62,546 bases of DNA, from positions 1 through 62,546 of the IMG/VR virus record IMGVR_UViG_3300021962_000102; one strand, written 5' to 3'. The position numbers and the translations under genes were made by a program. Below the pieces are notes generated by a model, which saw only the letters and a program-made list of their open reading frames with translations, had not been told where the DNA came from and ran no database searches. This document shows positions 28,501-46,844 of the stretch, piece after piece. Positions within the stretch are counted from its first letter, which is position 1. Every line of letters starts with the position of its first letter. This DNA is from a virus (Duplodnaviria > Caudoviricetes).

Positions 28501-29399
28501 GTATGGATTTGAAGAAAGCAGAAGACAAAGCATTTCTTGATTTCAGAGAAACAACTGAAGAATCTCAACAGTCTTCTAGACCAGACCGTATATCACCACA
28601 GCAAGCTAGCTCAGCTGGTAGAATAATCTTGGCATTTGCTAACACTCCAGCTCAGTATTCTAGATTGATGATCAAAGCGGCTAAAGATATAAAGAACGGC
28701 AGAGGCGATCTTAAGACAAACATAAGCAAAATTGCTTACTACGCTATTATTCAGAATATGATATTTAGCTATATGCAGCAGGGTTTGTTTGCGTTATTAT
28801 TCTCTGACGACGAAGAAGAGGTTTCAGAAAAAGAAGCTACAGATTTGATCAACAGTGCCGCTGATTCTATACTTCGCGGTTTTGGAATACAGGGCGCGAT
28901 AATCTCTACATTGAAAAACGTAGCTATAGAATACGGTAGACAAGCAGAAGCGGGAAGATTTAAATCAGATAAAATCTTGCTTCAAGCTGCTAGTATATCT
29001 CCTCCTATTGGAAACAAGGTTAGAAAGATAAACAACATAATGTATAATTCTAGCCAAGTAACAAAAGAAGCCAAGAAGACTGGAGAATATGACTTTACTT
29101 CTAGACCAACTTTAGAAATTGCTGCTGGAGCTATAGAACTAGGTACCAACTTGCCATTGACTAGAGCATTGTCTAAATATGATAACGTCATATCAGCAAT
29201 GAACGAGGACACGCATGTTGTACTTAGAACAGCGATGCTATTTGGTTGGCCAGAGTGGCAATTAATCAAAGAAGAAGATGAAAAATCGTACAAGCCAATG
29301 TCTCAAGATGAATTCGTTGAGCAGATTAAGTCTAAGCAAACCGAAGACTCTGGAGCAATGAGCGAAGAAGATTATATAAACAGTTTAAACAAAAAATAA
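22518..29399 (+). CDS. giant ejection/polyvalent protein with zincin HExxH and sigma70 region-2-like domains
   Basis: 2293 aa; Gly-rich membrane-like segments; HHETGH at 25170; GLFGLIKSFDPERGVPLAAYINKYL at 25968. Confidence 0.7.
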   Translation: MEDNKSLFRYDGKDYTREQIDIAAAESGLSFDDYISEFGLEPIDPIKKITATVGGATVDPKPKAPSTASKPVATSSASKSSPIVPDPVKQAKQNIDSILSNPFSADELDNIEAQVNAKPSVGVTATTFVGGMGGGVPVVSKKPTYPYESQINVAKKQLGVGATEQQINDLAKNLYREELKSKLVKRKVDNVLNQLEDETNNWQSVGEFFESGLVTLSNLGLGGSGQGVQPAKSTKEKRYEAARQDVSAYATQKLNERQKLVNKSVAGAKLASAVVETNINQLKEIEKNIKNSQDAVERNDLINQYNAVLDDTKSAAAAFEEYNGEVRKNIDYVNYGSQIVKDIPKSYNELDVFENRVFTTALTTAANLAEFGETGSLYMLKAHNPYVDPQIIKATYATPAESFGEDVREITDAASVQVRDHRPLGDISSWSDFGEFMVDLAGDQAFNTGLMFATGGVAGGALLGAGAAGGKMTEMWDARAKGENISDAKFLGTAIIYGGAEWGSEYIGFGQLKRSSKILADALDQGAVTMTQLGESFGKKLGSGLQEYGVNVSQEGFTEAVSQLGQNIADITLLGQNKSIFEGVEESFVTGSLMSGLMFQAPTVVAGTVKLFNTVDEVKQVDINQKEINRLKLQSIELSKQIKQKENEGADAAEIQGMYSNKKQIDDVIDDLALANTALMQTGIERIDNLRDIEKSAVIEQSKKIAFANSLIKKYQDMIDSSVDLDESTTSDLISEIKKLNEYKDSSIETINDIIKESDFSKTLDKAYSAIEQFSSSENGVPTDIMKFNGDIKTTYQMQQFLESDKFAAYVEKRYGKEKLQQIKNEAYKQIKLNAGKSGLDAFKSNESKTKANALFLTFPNFDLADGTEVEMPRFIVLNTKNGLHHETGHATLFSAIRESYGTDILSTMSDSLLTELNAIFESDPDKYEYASRFIKKRVAMYEQQHADYIKKYANHPEIENITAWSESRLAEEKLIAFLDYVKDSKLEVKNEARLKNIFKAVSNVLGKDKMQTYNVRDGKDVMNMLRSFNMHFDKKDIGTMIRSINEKKLLADNKLSEIDSNLKKSADIFRKIMKSFASLADDIKPSAHPNSIQADKVNKLYEEKGVEAAYEIAELYGGMLRNVLRRFKYLPNYENFVEDIMDAVKYGDRGLFGLIKSFDPERGVPLAAYINKYLSKRALGYITEYLNPEAGFMKDVTEQKGLMAEEEYDFEIDKPERSHSVIRKFLGLSEDQMNKVRKAVINALVFNPDIHKKRKWVPSEFKSELLKSFELDLFNLVKSDIFPSKNQDWYQYADQMYEWIINEVPMEVWLRSGVSIFYEPDIDPVNNKQKRMTPGEAEMAGVADINSGRYKWIAKKPTKEQWMEYIKAEGINPNTGKPYSWTTVGTRKDTIAKILAREMAFDATLEVLQNPEQPTYDFDGNPDGGSINVIHRMTLMSGQEYNKLAVVAQVADIINRDPRVMFSLSDGGSVDNRSAAAALFAEAELIFQEMEIVSEDVSDLADAYSSIIIDILDEKMKAAGMKPMSETKKLEIIESVLAIKFKDESKESEAWNKIRTAGMISVAKSLSQARAKSKTLIESNAQTAREIANEIRQEIGLSMTAREKELSDRFNKLLEKTFGIKQGKVFSDFDAQVAASKRSILKSMELMPVTAEDFIGLLYRTLSPGKDGEDQMAFYRKFLLYPFYDGATRHDAARVRILSGYKKLIQVKNNKHKQFKKIAFGNYTIEHVIRIAIWNKTGESISGISSEDVKSAIDFARKMPWVNEIADDIIEIMAPDGYGKPQQNWFLGNIENDLYNAINGHVRKNRMKEFATNADAIFNEYNMNKIQAVLGGSYRFALQNTLERMKSGKNRIATQNAWERKLNNWINGSVGAIMFLNMRSAVLQLVSMGNYINWSDNNPVAIAKAYANTKQMGQDILKLWNSDFMVTRRDGRKIDINEAELVEMLEESGANLGKIINWIIQKGFTPTQVADSMAIILGGAPFYRNRVNTYLKEGMDLKKAEDKAFLDFRETTEESQQSSRPDRISPQQASSAGRIILAFANTPAQYSRLMIKAAKDIKNGRGDLKTNISKIAYYAIIQNMIFSYMQQGLFALLFSDDEEEVSEKEATDLINSAADSILRGFGIQGAIISTLKNVAIEYGRQAEAGRFKSDKILLQAASISPPIGNKVRKINNIMYNSSQVTKEAKKTGEYDFTSRPTLEIAAGAIELGTNLPLTRALSKYDNVISAMNEDTHVVLRTAMLFGWPEWQLIKEEDEKSYKPMSQDEFVEQIKSKQTEDSGAMSEEDYINSLNKK

Positions 29400-29400
29400 A

Positions 29401-29691
29401 ATGGCAGACAAAAGTAAAATGGCTTGTAATAAGCCAATGAAATCAGATAGAGCTGGTAAAAAGAAAATGGTTAAAGCTTGTTCTAATGGTCAAGAAAAGC
29501 TAATTCACTTTGGAGCATCTGGTTATGGACACAACTACAGTGATGCTGCTAGAAAATCTTTTAGAGCAAGGCACGGTTGTGAGTCAGCTGACAATAAATT
29601 AACAGCAAAGTATTGGGCTTGTAAGAATCTATGGGGAGGACCTGGTAAAGACACTAAGTCATCACCTAGAAACGTAAGGGGAAAATACTAA
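29401..29691 (+). CDS. small basic phage protein (FRARHxC motif)
   Basis: IHFG...RKSFRARHGC...TAKYWAC..LW. Confidence 0.7.
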   Translation: MADKSKMACNKPMKSDRAGKKKMVKACSNGQEKLIHFGASGYGHNYSDAARKSFRARHGCESADNKLTAKYWACKNLWGGPGKDTKSSPRNVRGKY

Positions 29692-29694
29692 ATT

Positions 29695-29728
29695 AAAAAA
29701 GGGGGACTTTCGTCCCCCTTCTTTTTTT
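29695..29728. terminator. bidirectional terminator where the two transcription arms converge
   Basis: AAAAAA-GGGGGAC-TTTC-GTCCCCC-TTCTTTTTTT. Confidence 0.85.
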
Positions 29729-29787
29729 ACAACAACCTATCGTAACAGCAAAACTGGTACACGTAAATATACTTAAAATATTTCAAT

Positions 29788-31563
29788 CTAACCATCACAA
29801 GATAAACAATCTGGATCCATAGCTGATGAAGCTATATCTCCACGAAGCACAGACTCTGTACGCATATAGTACAACGTCTTAACGCCCCTTTTCCAAGCTT
29901 CCATGTGAACTGTGTTTATCCACTTTGGTGTTGCTTCTTTTGGGAATGCCATATTCAAACTAACGCTTTGATCAACGTACTGTTGTCTTATGCCAGCTTG
30001 CTTAACTAGTTCTAATTGATTTATTTCTTTGAACGTTTTAAATACATCTTTTACTTTGTCAGATTCTGATAAAGCTAAAGCGTCTGATTCTATTTCAGAG
30101 TAATTAACCAATTTTCCTTTGTGGAAATACCAATTGTCAAGCTCTTCAATGCCTTGGACAGAACCCCCATCTTCTAAAATCTTATTCCAAGTTTCTGGTG
30201 TGTTAATACCAATGCGCTTGAAAATCTTTTCTAGCTCTGGATTCTTCCTAATAAAAGTACCTTTGGCAGATTGCTCTGTGAAAACATTAGCAGCCCAAGG
30301 TTCAATACCTGGTGAAACGTTTCCGCTTAACTTAGAGTTTGAAACAGTAGGAGCTATAGCACGTAAATGCGTGTTTCGCATACCAGTACCAGAACACCAT
30401 TGTGGTTCTCCGTATATGTCAGCTAGATCACGACTTGCTCTTTCGCTTTCTATTTTTATTTGCTGAAATATAGCTCTAGTTGCAAATTGGGCTTGCAAAC
30501 CCTCAAAAGGTATTCCACGCTGCTGTAGATATGTGTGCCATCCGAGTACACCCAGGCCAAGTGCCCGTCCCTTTTCAGCGGAGCGAACCGAATTTTCGAA
30601 GCCCTTCATATTCTTGGCTTTCTGGATGAACTCTTCTAGAATACCATCTAAGAAGAACGTGGAATAGTATATTAGATCTGTGTCTTTCCATTCGTCATAC
30701 TTAGCAAGATTAACACTTGATAAGCAGCATACAAAACTATGAATCTCATCAGTGTGCAATGCTATTTCAGAACAGATGTTTGTCATATGAACTTTTAGTC
30801 CATTGATTTTATAAGCTTCAGGATTCTGTTTATTCACATTACCCTTAAACATAATGTAAGGCTCACCAGTTGCTTTGCGTTTCTGCAGTAGCTTACTCCA
30901 TTTACGTCTAGCGTCTGGATCACCGTGTTCAAGCTTACGCATAAACTTATCACCAACAATTGCGCATTGATGAAGGTTTAGCGATTGTCTATTGACATCT
31001 CCTTTAGGTTCACGGATCTCAAGCCAGTCTTCAAAGTCTGCGTGGTCAATGTTTAGATTAACCGATGCAGCACCTCGTCTAACTGAACCTTGGCTGGTGG
31101 CGAGTATAGTTGAGTCAAATATTTTGCAGAAAGGAACAACGCCATCAGTAGTGCCGTTATCAGTAATTCTAGAACCAGCTGGTCTAATCATATTGATACC
31201 AATACCAACACCTCCACCGTGTTTTGCTAATAGCATCATTTCTAGGTTTTTAGAACCTATTTCGAAAACGCTATCACCAACGTCAATACCAAAGCAAGAT
31301 ATTGGCAAACCTCTATCAGTGCCAGTATTAGACAATACAGGAGAGGCAAGATTCAACCAGCCTTCCCAGATAAAGTTAAAGAACTTTTCTGCTAGCTCTG
31401 GCTTGTGTAATCTGCGAGCCGCTGTTTTAGCAACGCGATAGTAAGCCTCTCTAGGAGTTTCGTCTGGCAGTAAGTAACCACCAGTTATGGTCTTCTTATA
31501 GACCTCAGTGTCTCCCCACTTTGGATAGTCTTGACCTTTTACCCAATCGTTATTCCATTTCAT
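29788..31563 (-). CDS. nrdA: ribonucleotide reductase class I alpha subunit (no ATP cone)
   Basis: PISCF, TNICSE, VCCL, IAPT, KTLYY, C-terminal CLSC. Confidence 0.93.
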   Translation of the reverse strand: MKWNNDWVKGQDYPKWGDTEVYKKTITGGYLLPDETPREAYYRVAKTAARRLHKPELAEKFFNFIWEGWLNLASPVLSNTGTDRGLPISCFGIDVGDSVFEIGSKNLEMMLLAKHGGGVGIGINMIRPAGSRITDNGTTDGVVPFCKIFDSTILATSQGSVRRGAASVNLNIDHADFEDWLEIREPKGDVNRQSLNLHQCAIVGDKFMRKLEHGDPDARRKWSKLLQKRKATGEPYIMFKGNVNKQNPEAYKINGLKVHMTNICSEIALHTDEIHSFVCCLSSVNLAKYDEWKDTDLIYYSTFFLDGILEEFIQKAKNMKGFENSVRSAEKGRALGLGVLGWHTYLQQRGIPFEGLQAQFATRAIFQQIKIESERASRDLADIYGEPQWCSGTGMRNTHLRAIAPTVSNSKLSGNVSPGIEPWAANVFTEQSAKGTFIRKNPELEKIFKRIGINTPETWNKILEDGGSVQGIEELDNWYFHKGKLVNYSEIESDALALSESDKVKDVFKTFKEINQLELVKQAGIRQQYVDQSVSLNMAFPKEATPKWINTVHMEAWKRGVKTLYYMRTESVLRGDIASSAMDPDCLSCDG

Positions 31564-40754: not shown

Positions 40755-41366
40755 TCAATGTTTTAATAGTCCAACTTTTATATTGTTATTGAACCATCTG
40801 GTTGCATATAAATCGTGTTCTGATGCGTTAATATATTCGTCGCGTTTCATCGCGTCTAATGACGAAAAAATAACGGCATGCCTGTCTTTTGTTACATCTA
40901 TATATTCTTTTTGTTTACCACTAGTGCTGAATATTATATCAAAGTTTTCTGGTATTAATTCAGAATTTTGTTTTATAAGCTTAACACTATTTGTGTAACT
41001 GTAGAACCGGATGTTTGGAAATTTATTTGCTATGTCTATCCATTTCTTTAAATAATTAAAAGAATAAAAATCACCAGAGTCATGTACTCTAACGTAAGAA
41101 GGATTTTCATAGGTTATATGTGACGACATGACTTCAACAAAATCATCTTTAAGAGTAGCACTGTATCTTTCTTCGTATGCTTTAGAAGGATTTTTGTATT
41201 TATAAGTTCCTTTCCTAGCATAACAGAACTTGACGCAGTCGCCAGCAAATGGACATGTTACTTTGCCAGTTACAGACTTAAACGCTGGTATACCAAAATT
41301 TAATATGCGCACACCAAAATGTTTTGACGTACGCAGCATTTTAGAATTCTGTGATAATAATTTCAT
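40755..41366 (-). CDS. GP88-like (radical-SAM-like) protein
   Basis: TCPFAGDCVKFCYA, RVHDSGDF, FYSYT. Confidence 0.7.
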   Translation of the reverse strand: MKLLSQNSKMLRTSKHFGVRILNFGIPAFKSVTGKVTCPFAGDCVKFCYARKGTYKYKNPSKAYEERYSATLKDDFVEVMSSHITYENPSYVRVHDSGDFYSFNYLKKWIDIANKFPNIRFYSYTNSVKLIKQNSELIPENFDIIFSTSGKQKEYIDVTKDRHAVIFSSLDAMKRDEYINASEHDLYATRWFNNNIKVGLLKH

Positions 41367-43349: not shown

Positions 43350-43607
43350 TTACACATTATCCTCAATTAGAATCTCCCAATAGTCGTCGTGTTCAACGAA
43401 CCCATTAACAATTCCTTGTAGTAAATACAGCGACATATTAGTGCCCAAGGATATAAATGGTCCGCCGCTTGGGTCAACAAATATAATCTTGTCGTCATCA
43501 TTCCACCCGTAGCGCGTGTACTTGAAGTCTCCCTTCCAGTCGATGTTGCCGTTCTCGTTCTTTTCAAACGTGAACTCGTCTTTATATCTGTTAGTGTACT
43601 TAATCAT
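43350..43607 (-). CDS. hypothetical protein
   Basis: FVDPSGGPFI motif. Confidence 0.65.
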   Translation of the reverse strand: MIKYTNRYKDEFTFEKNENGNIDWKGDFKYTRYGWNDDDKIIFVDPSGGPFISLGTNMSLYLLQGIVNGFVEHDDYWEILIEDNV

Positions 43608-43966
43608 TGGAATGTTTGAATTTTAGCATATACTTCTTTTAGTTCAGACCAAGTACCTAAGTACGTAATTGCTCTAACTTTTCTGTTGTCAATCCATACG
43701 TATTCTTGTCCGTCTTTGATGCGTGGTTTATCCATCACTAATCCATGATACTTGAATCCGTGGTCACTCAACCATTTTTCTGTAACGGCACGGTCTTTTG
43801 ATTCTCTTGCTGTGAAAAAAGTTATAACATTACCATCTTCATACCACTTGTTTATGATTTTTAAAGCGTTGTCATAAACTTTAGCGTATGGGAACAAATG
43901 ACTTTCTTCATTTTTAATGTCATCGCATATTGTTCCGTCAATATCAATTAAGAATACTTTATTCAT
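43604..43966 (-). CDS. HAD-superfamily phosphatase
   Basis: FLIDIDGT, FTAR, MDKP, WIDN; ATG 43966. Confidence 0.8.
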   Translation of the reverse strand: MNKVFLIDIDGTICDDIKNEESHLFPYAKVYDNALKIINKWYEDGNVITFFTARESKDRAVTEKWLSDHGFKYHGLVMDKPRIKDGQEYVWIDNRKVRAITYLGTWSELKEVYAKIQTFQ

Positions 43967-43978
43967 TTTGTTTTTACT

Positions 43979-44055
43979 TGGCACCCCTGACAGGAATCGA
44001 ACCTGTAACCTACGCATTAGAAGTGCGTTGCTCTATCCAGTTGAGCTACAGGGGC
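43979..44055 (-). tRNA. tRNA-Arg(UCU)
   Basis: Canonical cloverleaf, loop CT-TCT-AA, GTTCGA T loop, encoded CCA. Confidence 0.95.
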
Positions 44056-44060
44056 ATAAT

Positions 44061-44139
44061 AGTACGCTCGGTGGGACTCGAACCCACGTGTGACCAGTTA
44101 CCCTTTCTACAAGGTATAAGCTTGAGGGGATACGAGCGT
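44061..44139 (-). tRNA. non-canonical tRNA-like RNA, anticodon UAU (Ile), no D arm
   Basis: 7-bp acceptor ACGCTCG/CGAGCGT, T arm GTGGG-TTCGAGT-CCCAC, loop CT-TAT-AC, discriminator A. Confidence 0.7.
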
Positions 44140-44146
44140 TTATGCT

Positions 44147-45983: not shown

Positions 45984-46844
45984 CTACAGTAAGATACTTG
46001 AGCATTTTTTATTTCTTTTTAATCTATTTAATCCGCTGTCTTTTAGTTGACGCGCTTTTTCATCTGGAATATCTAATTCCATAGCTATTTGCTTAATAGT
46101 CTTGGCATGTTCAAACGCGCCTAAATACATTGACACAACCTTGAAGTGCATTGGATTTAAAACCTTCTCTGCAGTTTTCCAAAACAGATTTACTGTAGAC
46201 TCCTGTGTTATATCTTCATCTGGTTGTGCGTAGGTTGTGTTAGGCAACACATCAGATATTGTAGTTGATGATTCATCTCCAGACAGCGTAGCGTCGCTAG
46301 ACGTCATCTCTGCGGTGTGGTTGAACATGTCTAAAACAAAACTCTCTTCAACGCCAAGATGTTCTGCAATCTCAAAAGGTTCTGGTTCTCTAAACAGTTT
46401 CTGCTCGAGCTCAGACGATGCCTTGCGTATCCTATTCATATTGGCATTCCTATTGCCTGGCGTGTATATCTGCTTTGACTTAGTGTCAATTGAGTGTAGT
46501 ATACTCTGCCTGATCCACCACACGGCGAACGATATGAACTTAAAACCTCTTGTTGGATCGAACCTGTCAACAGCCTTAATAAGGCCGATGTTGCCTTCTG
46601 ATATTAAGTCTTCAAGCTTCATACCAGATACTTGATACTGCTTGGCGACAGATACAACAAACCTTAAGTTTGCGCGCGTTAGTTTTTCTTTTGCAACTGG
46701 ATCCCCTGTTTCGTAAATGATTTTAGTTAATTCAAATTCTTCTTCTGGCGTTAATAGTTTTTCTTTAGAAAGCTCTAAAAAGTATTTATCTATTGATTTG
46801 CTTTCGCGTTTAGTAATCTGATTGGCGATCTTAAGTTGGCGCAT
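45984..46844 (-). CDS. RpoD/SigA-like sigma factor of the Bacteroidota primary-sigma type
   Basis: MRQLKI..ITKRE, ANLRFVVSVAKQYQ, DLISEGNIGL, FDPTRGFKFISFAVWWIRQSI. Confidence 0.92.
   Translation of the reverse strand: MRQLKIANQITKRESKSIDKYFLELSKEKLLTPEEEFELTKIIYETGDPVAKEKLTRANLRFVVSVAKQYQVSGMKLEDLISEGNIGLIKAVDRFDPTRGFKFISFAVWWIRQSILHSIDTKSKQIYTPGNRNANMNRIRKASSELEQKLFREPEPFEIAEHLGVEESFVLDMFNHTAEMTSSDATLSGDESSTTISDVLPNTTYAQPDEDITQESTVNLFWKTAEKVLNPMHFKVVSMYLGAFEHAKTIKQIAMELDIPDEKARQLKDSGLNRLKRNKKCSSILL

Follow-up and report, generated by a model that had tools for sequence, protein, structure and literature searches.

A tRNA-Ile(UAU)-like gene with an apparently permuted D/anticodon domain belongs to a large phage-associated family

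The window, by which we mean the whole stretch of DNA analyzed here (62,546 nucleotides, or 62.5 kb, a complete IMG/VR virus record), contains only two tRNA-type genes. One is an ordinary tRNA-Arg(UCU). The other, a 77-nt tRNA-like gene read from the sequence at 44139..44063 on the - strand, raises the question addressed in this study: its acceptor stem, T arm, anticodon loop (UAU), and A discriminator are all canonical, and neither the sequence nor its alignment to the Rfam tRNA model has a D hairpin between position 9 and the anticodon arm. Is this gene the remnant of a tRNA, an imitation of one, or a working tRNA whose segments are connected in a different order? A preliminary description, made from the sequence alone, had presented the locus as a rearranged tRNA-like gene lacking a D arm. 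The canonical features that it listed, namely, a fully paired acceptor stem (7/7), U8-A9, the anticodon loop, the T arm, and the A discriminator, were all borne out. The span that it gave, 44061-44139, is right at the start of the gene and 2 nt too long at the end, the discriminator being 44063. Likewise, the gap of 5 nt that it reported before the tRNA-Arg gene is correct when counted from 44061 and becomes 7 nt when counted from the discriminator. The parts of the locus are listed below, with nt numbers counted from the 5′ end of the gene.

44133..44139, - strand: acceptor stem, 5′ strand (nt 1-7); 7/7 pairs with 44064-44070
44130..44132, - strand: U8 and A9 (44132-44131) and a U (nt 8-10), which connect the acceptor stem and the inner helix; from reading the sequence
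44127..44129, - strand: CCC strand of the inner 3-bp helix (nt 11-13), pairing with 44103-44101; putative equivalent of D-stem positions 23-25
44125..44126, - strand: C and U on the 5′ side of the internal loop (nt 14-15), from the column-pair counts in the 100-sequence alignment; putative equivalents of positions 26 and 27
44110..44124, - strand: anticodon arm, with a 4-bp stem (44124-44121/44113-44110) and a 7-nt loop (44120-44114); from the Rfam alignment
44104..44109, - strand: U, A, and the GAAA linker on the 3′ side of the internal loop (nt 31-36); from reading the sequence
44101..44103, - strand: GGG strand of the inner helix (nt 37-39), from covariation and RNAalifold; putative equivalent of D-stem positions 10-12
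44088..44100, - strand: D-loop-like single strand and connector (nt 40-52), with GG at 44095-44094 and U at 44093
44071..44087, - strand: T arm, with a 5-bp stem and a 7-nt loop; from the Rfam alignment
44063..44070, - strand: acceptor stem, 3′ strand (44070-44064), and discriminator A (44063); from reading the sequence
44056..44062, - strand: spacer or 3′ trailer of 7 nt; C74 is encoded and CCA is not
43979..44055, - strand: tRNA-Arg(UCU), canonical, with an encoded CCA; ARAGORN, and 71.6 bits in Rfam

In E. coli tRNA-Ile, the isoleucine identity elements are an NAU anticodon, A37, and A73. The gene studied here has a UAU anticodon (44118-44116 on the - strand, within the loop 44120-44114), A37, and a discriminator A. 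According to the Rfam alignment, its anticodon loop is canonical, with 7 nt, U33, and a purine (A) at position 37, and the T loop is of the UUCRA type. The anticodon stem is made of four Watson-Crick pairs, with a U.U at the fifth position.

The standard tRNA finders hardly see this gene, as the preliminary description had anticipated. ARAGORN made no call for it and reported the tRNA-Arg(UCU) only. Rfam RF00005 gave 31.4 bits at 44063-44139(-) for a gathering score of 29, a narrow pass, in an alignment where the 15 model positions of the D arm face 4 nt and where 18 extra nt are accommodated in the variable region. When five other members of the family described below were compared with the Rfam tRNA model, three scored 23.1-27.4 bits, below the cut-off, and two gave no tRNA call at E<=1. 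ARAGORN calls overlap only 2 of 100 family members, each being a spurious long call, and Rfam 15 has no separate family for a tRNA with this rearranged core. Folded alone, the sequence has a minimum free energy of -23.8 kcal/mol (z -1.54), with 16 of 200 shuffles equally stable; the fold that we propose comes to -20.1 for the same sequence, and the two structures differ. The sequence by itself is not convincing, and it is far beyond chance once 100 distinct homologs are aligned. Rejection or bare acceptance by standard finders would also be expected of a decaying pseudogene, that is, a canonical tRNA-Ile scrambled by small rearrangements, and a few copies in the family do look clearly degenerate (the one in L159, a 40.9-bit copy shared by L189 and L205, and the sequence found in L227/L228). 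The comparative data presented below bear directly on this reading.

The element is not an assembly artefact, an explanation that the preliminary description had itself named as fatal to its proposal. A 1-kb stretch around the element is present in 20 DNA runs from 12 studies, and contigs from four runs of four studies other than the probable source carry 44061-44139 without a listed difference and do show differences in the flanking genes. The IMG/VR contig L002 is identical across the 77 nt and differs at 5 of 114 other aligned positions, and therefore yields no covariation. With the neighboring HAD phosphatase gene as a handle, 134 relatives were found and 80 loci kept; L002 is the only one of the 80 to have the tRNA pair beside this gene, while L010 has a tRNA-Arg elsewhere, and our covariance model of the family, R1, found no match in the other 79 loci. 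Upstream of the element, sequence conservation extends only to L002 and, at a weak level, to L003, so that no insertion site could be delimited cleanly. The downstream gene was considered as a possible PNKP tRNA-repair enzyme, a candidate that we rejected, since Pfam HAD_PNKP reaches 20.8 bits for a cut-off of 27.6 bits and generic HAD phosphatase families score better.

Searches of GenBank phages by blastn depended strongly on the query. A 1.5-kb query returned parts of ordinary tRNAs only, and a 47-nt core proved too insensitive (2 real matches among 11 records). The 85-nt element retrieved the odd core in Streptomyces phages, a crAss-like phage, and an uncultured caudovirus, all of them unannotated at that spot. 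Six sequences, once aligned, had a constant core, covarying stems, and three anticodons (UAU, GAU, and ACG), and the degenerate motif used to scan for the family was derived from this alignment. In IMG/VR, the motif identified at least 117 loci. The matches listed include 100 sequences that differ from one another. They have 73 distinct acceptor strands, their pairwise identity has a median of 0.675, and they form the 100-sequence alignment used throughout, in which the core bases fixed by the pattern are constant by construction. The constancy of U8, A9, and U (nt 8-10) is thus imposed by the search and has no evidential weight; the GAAA linker is fixed in the same way, and other linkers occur in looser relatives. 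The anticodon is UAU in 57 of the 100 sequences, GAU in 24, ACG in 18, and CCU in 1. An IMG/VR scan with the window's own anticodon arm gave a single locus, L001, which was discarded as a chance match in a coding-like stretch without a tRNA. The T4 “species 1/2” stable RNAs were considered as a candidate and dropped, without support in the data.

The same motif was run against prokaryotes, with one genome for each of 185,579 species, and gave 15 loci only. All 15 are in MAGs, 13 are beside other tRNA genes, and three are on contigs of more than 150 kb; some of them may be prophages or integrated arrays. On these counts, the family is phage-associated and almost confined to phage sequence. In GenBank, an ACG-type member matched 49 records (44 from Streptomyces, 2 from Microbacterium, 2 from Rhodococcus, and 1 uncultured). 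Annotation was absent from almost all the matches listed, and the copy in Rhodococcus phage Trina is labeled tRNA-OTHER. Members are also carried by cultured Streptomyces phages, including Coruscant (GAU type) and Persimmon (ACG type).

A covariance model built from phage homologs was among the checks suggested at the outset, and R1 separates the members, at 74.9 bits or more, from canonical tRNAs, at 29 bits or less, with looser variants at 34-56; the window scored 96.1 bits, although it is among the training sequences. On 458,049 bases of related phage DNA, R1 found no match. Relatives identified by covariance model outside the motif have quite different helix sequences and linker lengths, keep the same plan, and carry UCG, UCU, GAU, and UAU anticodons, so that the anticodons found on the rearranged fold are UAU, GAU, ACG, CCU, UCU, and UCG. 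No match was obtained for the same core when anticodon position 35 was G or U, and an N-A-V anticodon gave one degenerate sequence (UAC), at two loci.

The structure tested on the 100-sequence alignment comprises the acceptor stem, the 3-bp inner helix, the anticodon stem, the T stem, and three tertiary-type pairs. In total, 97.8% of its 2200 pair cells are paired, compared with 69% for shuffles, none of 500 reaching 97.8%, and 31-50% for slid controls. Pairing amounts to 97.9% in the acceptor columns (1-7/72-78), 99% in the anticodon-stem columns (16-19/27-30), and 96.8% in the T-stem columns (55-59/67-71), and double changes occur at 7/7, 3/4, and 4/5 of their pairs, respectively. In a mutual-information scan of all column pairs, the top 14 all fall within the proposed structure, and RNAalifold, run unguided, recovered the same 19 nested pairs. 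The preliminary description was to be abandoned if no homologs with covarying stems existed; 100 aligned sequences covary, and this objection clearly fails.

The columns of the inner helix (11-13/37-39) are paired in all 100 sequences. Its outermost position has C-G in 61 sequences, A-U in the other 39, and nothing else, under a search motif that permitted all four combinations. Among relatives that the pattern did not capture, the middle pair can also be U-A or U.G, and phage Trina has another type of third pair. An extension of the anticodon hairpin by CCCT/AGGG had been proposed initially. A helix extending the hairpin does exist, but its register was off by one: the corrected register, 44129-44127/44103-44101, is paired in 100/100, whereas CCCT/AGGG fails at one pair (C.U) in 39/100. 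Between this helix and the anticodon stem, the column pair 14-32 is C.A in 69 sequences and C.U in 31, and the column pair 15-31, the fifth position of the anticodon stem, is U.U in 96 and C.U in 4. With these data, a decaying pseudogene is hardly credible. Across 100 distinct sequences, drawn from many phages, every helix is kept by compensatory changes. Independent metagenomes contain the stretch unaltered between flanks that change, and the median identity of 0.675 and the 73 distinct acceptor strands rule out a single sequence that spread recently.

The strand that follows the inner helix behaves as a D-loop. Its GG is nearly invariant among the 100 sequences, and the second G and the T-loop C (columns 47-62), which resemble the G19-C56 pair, are G-C in 96 sequences and A-U, a double change, in 1. 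The columns 42-54 are A-U in 65 sequences, G-C in 23, G-U in 3, and other combinations in 9, the purine being the column two before the GG region and the pyrimidine the last base before the T stem. This R/Y covariation is of the same behavior as that of the 15-48 Levitt pair of canonical tRNA; in the 44139..44063 gene, the corresponding pair is A.C. The base 3′ of GG follows the anticodon: it is U in 81/81 members with an Ile anticodon and A in 19/19 members with an Arg anticodon (17 by column and 2 in shifted rows read in the alignment), and A also follows GG in six Arg members found later (CCU, UCU, and UCG). All 81 Ile members have A as the discriminator; among the Arg members, 10 have G, 7 have A, and 2 have U. 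A20 is a classic determinant for ArgRS, and A73 is an Ile identity element. These anticodon-linked identity correlations rank just under the helices in the mutual-information list. Judged from the alignment, the 3′ strand is the D-loop. The D-loop-like stretch that had been noticed on the 3′ side of the anticodon arm does exist, and conservation is seen in its GG, its 15-48-like covariation, and its isotype-specific base. To say that the D arm is missing, as was first done, is correct in that there is no D hairpin, but the arm is better described as rearranged, with a stem that encloses the anticodon arm and a loop that comes after it.

Taken with the covariation, the D-loop features found 3′ of the anticodon arm support the alternative tRNA topology that had been suggested. 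We consider it probable that the gene is a functional elongator tRNA-Ile(UAU) belonging to a large, phage-associated, and apparently undescribed class with a permuted D/anticodon domain. Nucleotides 10-44 would be circularly permuted and read as 22-44, a linker, and then 10-21. The 5′ strand of the inner helix and anticodon stem would be the equivalent of canonical positions 23-31, and the 3′ strand that of 39-44, the GAAA linker, 10-13, the D-loop 14-21, two or three bases, and 48. In canonical tRNA, as in yeast tRNA-Phe, position 10 is a spatial neighbor of 44/45, and 21/22 adjoin 8, 9, and 48, and all helices and the elbow could therefore keep their places. After U8-A9, the chain would go directly into the 3-bp helix, the proposed D-stem equivalent, and continue into the anticodon arm, before the short GAAA linker returns to close the helix. 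The D-loop with its GG would form last and run straight into the T stem. The stack of D-stem and anticodon stem would become one bulged hairpin, and the D-loop could still dock on the T-loop to give an L shape.

How does this fold compare with known tRNAs? With canonical tRNA-Ile(UAU) of phages and bacteria, it shares the 7-bp acceptor stem, the 5-bp T arm, the 7-nt anticodon loop, U33, A37, A73, the UAU anticodon for AUA, and a place in phage tRNA arrays; ARAGORN found 10 canonical tRNA-Ile(tat) genes in the same phage loci. It differs by the absence of a D hairpin, by a D-stem equivalent that encloses the anticodon arm with the D-loop after it, and by a junction that is three-way rather than four-way. 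There is also a resemblance to tRNA-Ser(AGY) of animal mitochondria, which has no D hairpin, has an anticodon helix extended by pairs that replace the D-stem, and has a three-way junction. Mitochondrial tRNAs are covered in a review (PMC7609411, of which excerpts were available). The absent D hairpin, the extended anticodon helix, and the three-way junction are shared features, but the mitochondrial tRNA-Ser(AGY) has lost the elbow, whereas the phage family has kept a GG-containing D-loop-like strand, the 15-48-like covariation, and a canonical T-loop, and probably keeps the elbow. Indeed, neither the lost elbow contacts nor the degenerate T-loop of the mitochondrial type is found in the family, where the GG and T-loop are conserved and the G19-C56-like pair is G-C in 96/100. 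The settings also differ, with bacterial machinery and Ile or Arg anticodons in one case and mitochondrial machinery and Ser in the other.

Another comparison is with viral tRNA-like structures such as the 3′ structure of TYMV, which is the end of a viral RNA genome, has a pseudoknotted acceptor, and does not decode. Both obtain a tRNA shape from a strand connectivity that is not that of a tRNA, but the phage element is a free-standing gene of a DNA phage with an ordinary acceptor stem and a variable anticodon that is consistent with its isotype. Circularly permuted tRNA genes have been described in Cyanidioschyzon merolae (excerpts of PMC3978253) and share with the phage family a non-canonical order of segments in the gene. 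The algal gene is permuted as a whole, and processing restores the mature tRNA to the canonical order; in the phage family, the inner domain alone is permuted, stays so in the RNA as far as the sequence shows, and is not accompanied by a bulge-helix-bulge motif. Finally, tRNA-Sec, allo-tRNA, and other 8/4 or 9/3 tRNAs are, from the available parts of PMC5389517 and PMC7609411, also non-canonical, also from bacteria or phages, and also the product of metagenome mining, and UAU and Arg anticodons are frequent in allo-tRNAs (PMC5389517, same excerpts). These tRNAs have altered acceptor and T stem lengths and keep the D hairpin, whereas the phage family has a 7/5 branch and a rearranged D/anticodon domain. 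We found no description of the rearranged fold in the accessible portions of open-access papers and bioRxiv preprints, including PMC7609411, PMC13092985, PMC5389517, and PMC13313380.

The genomic context agrees with a role in decoding. Members share a strand with varied neighbors inside phage tRNA arrays, with 699 ARAGORN tRNAs in 98 family loci (median 4 per locus). Twenty-three arrays have 12 or more canonical tRNAs; of the 24 members in them, only 3 duplicate a canonical anticodon of the same locus, and typically a rearranged UAU gene is paired with a canonical GAU gene, or a rearranged GAU gene with a canonical UAU gene. In a crude ORF set of the window's phage (62 ORFs, 53 kb), AUA is the top Ile codon, with 44% of Ile codons, and AGA is the top Arg codon, with 53% of Arg codons; these are exactly the codons that match the phage's only two tRNA genes. 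The decoding of AUA proposed at the outset fits this codon use. That it would be decoded without TilS is true of the UAU anticodon, and indeed of any tRNA with a UAU anticodon, but it is not special to this fold, which carries five other anticodons as well.

A tRNA-like RNA in a phage does not have to act in translation. It could be a mimic, that is, a decoy or sponge for tRNA-targeting nucleases or tRNA-binding defense proteins, or a competitive inhibitor of a host enzyme. The element has a tRNA-like anticodon loop and acceptor/T half on an odd core, its family is nearly phage-only, and phage tRNAs have been proposed to counter tRNA-targeting defenses (excerpts of PMC10264068). However, a decoy would need neither isotype-specific D-loop and discriminator bases nor 7-bp acceptor stems that strictly covary, the members fill the empty anticodon slots of their arrays, and the anticodon fits the top Ile codon of the phage. 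We therefore regard a mimic as unlikely and do not favor the decoy that the preliminary description had offered as an alternative, given the isotype-specific bases and the anticodon slots left empty by canonical genes.

A working tRNA could, on the other hand, be charged with an amino acid other than isoleucine or read codons more loosely, its 4-bp anticodon stem and unmodified U34 leading to recoding or mis-decoding. Four Watson-Crick pairs with U.U are found in the anticodon stem of 96/100 members, a connection between 4-bp anticodon stems and relaxed decoding is made in a 2026 paper (excerpts of PMC13092985), and allo-tRNAs whose anticodon is UAU are presumed to be missense tRNAs (excerpts of PMC5389517). 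The data nevertheless make mis-decoding very improbable: A73 is present in 81/81 members with an Ile anticodon, the change of the D-loop base with the anticodon is exactly the one expected from Ile and Arg identity, the acceptor/T branch is a canonical 7/5 unlike that of allo-tRNA, and the ordinary ORFs of the phage are AUA-rich under the standard code.

The position of the gene, 7 nt upstream of tRNA-Arg in a run of - strand genes, would also suit a tRNA-derived structured RNA with a non-translational role, such as a processing signal for tRNA-Arg and the mRNAs, a primer, or a recombination site. In agreement with this, a search for a promoter or terminator belonging to the rearranged gene gave no consensus element above shuffle expectation. 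Still, neighbors vary across the family, 77/100 members having no tRNA within 60 nt downstream, and the element is thus not tied to tRNA-Arg; in addition, a processing signal has no use for anticodon-linked covariation. We give such a role scarcely any credence.

If the gene encodes an elongator tRNA-Ile(UAU), as we propose, its maturation would depend largely on the host. The gene is probably co-transcribed with tRNA-Arg(UCU), and transcription would take in the neighboring genes as well. Host RNase P would cut the 5′ end, and the 3′ end would be trimmed before host enzymes add CCA. The base after the discriminator is C in 98/100 members and CCA is encoded in 15/100, and most members, the 44139..44063 gene included, would therefore need CCA addition by the host. 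Host IleRS would then charge the tRNA through its anticodon, A73, and the D-loop base, and the charged tRNA would read AUA, the commonest Ile codon of the phage.

Why would phages keep such a tRNA? One can speculate that the permuted architecture evolved in phages and was spread by them, that it is accepted by the RNase P, CCA-adding enzyme, IleRS/ArgRS, EF-Tu, and ribosome of hosts from many phyla, and that it was retained because its rewired core is a poor substrate for host or phage tRNA-targeting nucleases or for modification enzymes that read the canonical D arm. We offer this explanation tentatively and with more doubt than confidence. If it were true, the fold would represent a structural route of escape from immunity and prove that an L shape needs no cloverleaf order.

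From a practical perspective, ARAGORN and Rfam overlook most members, so that the tRNA sets of phages are under-counted exactly at the Ile and Arg slots, and most of the GenBank copies in Streptomyces, Microbacterium, and crAss-like phages lack annotation. This under-counting distorts analyses of codon compensation and of anti-defense functions. The family is also a natural test of what tRNA-binding enzymes need from the placement of the D arm, and the rearranged fold offers tRNA engineering a new scaffold. Should charging and use of these RNAs be borne out, a bacterial-type tRNA would not require the strand order of the cloverleaf, and the L shape could be built from a three-way junction, with the D-loop coming from the other side.

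The rearranged tRNA family was collected with our degenerate motif, and six elements outside its exact terms share the same architecture. These looser relatives are found at the following positions:

L116:872-950, minus strand, looser relative of the rearranged tRNA
L142:3297-3371, minus strand, looser relative
L152:2956-3032, plus strand, looser relative
L152:5066-5139, plus strand, looser relative
L121:89-170, minus strand, looser relative
L229:295-373, plus strand, looser relative in the Rhodococcus phage Trina locus

In the common plan of these genes, the anticodon arm lies inside the inner helix and is followed by a D-loop with GG; they differ in their helix sequences, and their linkers are 5-11 nt long. 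UAU, GAU, UCG, UCU, and ACG anticodons are represented, and the scores with R1, the covariance model of the family, range from 34 to 56 bits. As the same plan is built with other helices and linkers, the family is therefore broader than the search motif. Decay of rearranged-tRNA genes does occur, as seen in degenerate copies at L159:1883-1959, L189:5159-5231, and L205:683-755 and in L227 and L228, among which one acceptor stem is broken, the GG has been lost from one copy, and the anticodon loop of one is odd.

Over the rearranged tRNA (window 44076-44143), contig depths summed to about 12-40x the value for the flanking gene in two metagenomes of marine or estuary origin, and loose ends began at window 44133. 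The excess depth and the loose ends suggest that close relatives of the element are carried by other phages in the same samples.

Three protein-coding genes of the window are described here:

43607-43966, minus strand, HAD-superfamily phosphatase (Pfam), 120 aa, immediately downstream of the tRNA pair
45987-46844, minus strand, the phage's own sigma-70 family factor, with regions 1.2, 2, 3, and 4
40758-41363, minus strand, GP88-family protein

The phosphatase matched the Pfam families LNS2_PITM1-3 (36.3 bits) and Acid_phosphat_B (28.8 bits); its match to HAD_PNKP, at 20.8 bits, fell under the cut-off. Its 134 relatives in IMG/VR (74-99% identity) are on contigs of 3.5-311 kb, and the tRNA pair adjoins such a relative in only one of the 80 loci kept. 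Both GC skew and AT skew change sign near 30 kb (window about 29000-31000), with a cumulative GC skew maximum of 1.34, which fits a coding-strand switch between two gene blocks, divergent or convergent.

Elsewhere in the family, a gene annotated as a nucleotidyltransferase is directly followed by a rearranged tRNA-Ile(GAU) in Streptomyces phages Coruscant (L085:1-382) and LilMartin (L086:1-378), and another gene with this annotation is near the ACG member in Trina (L229:661-666). These nucleotidyltransferases could be phage CCA-adding enzymes. Finally, three of the 15 matches in prokaryotic genomes are on long MAG contigs (L214, 712,738 bp; L211, 306,108 bp; L217, 163,048 bp), and two of these three adjoin arrays with 5-23 tRNA genes. 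Instead of belonging to free phage genomes, some members may reside in prophages or in integrated tRNA array units.
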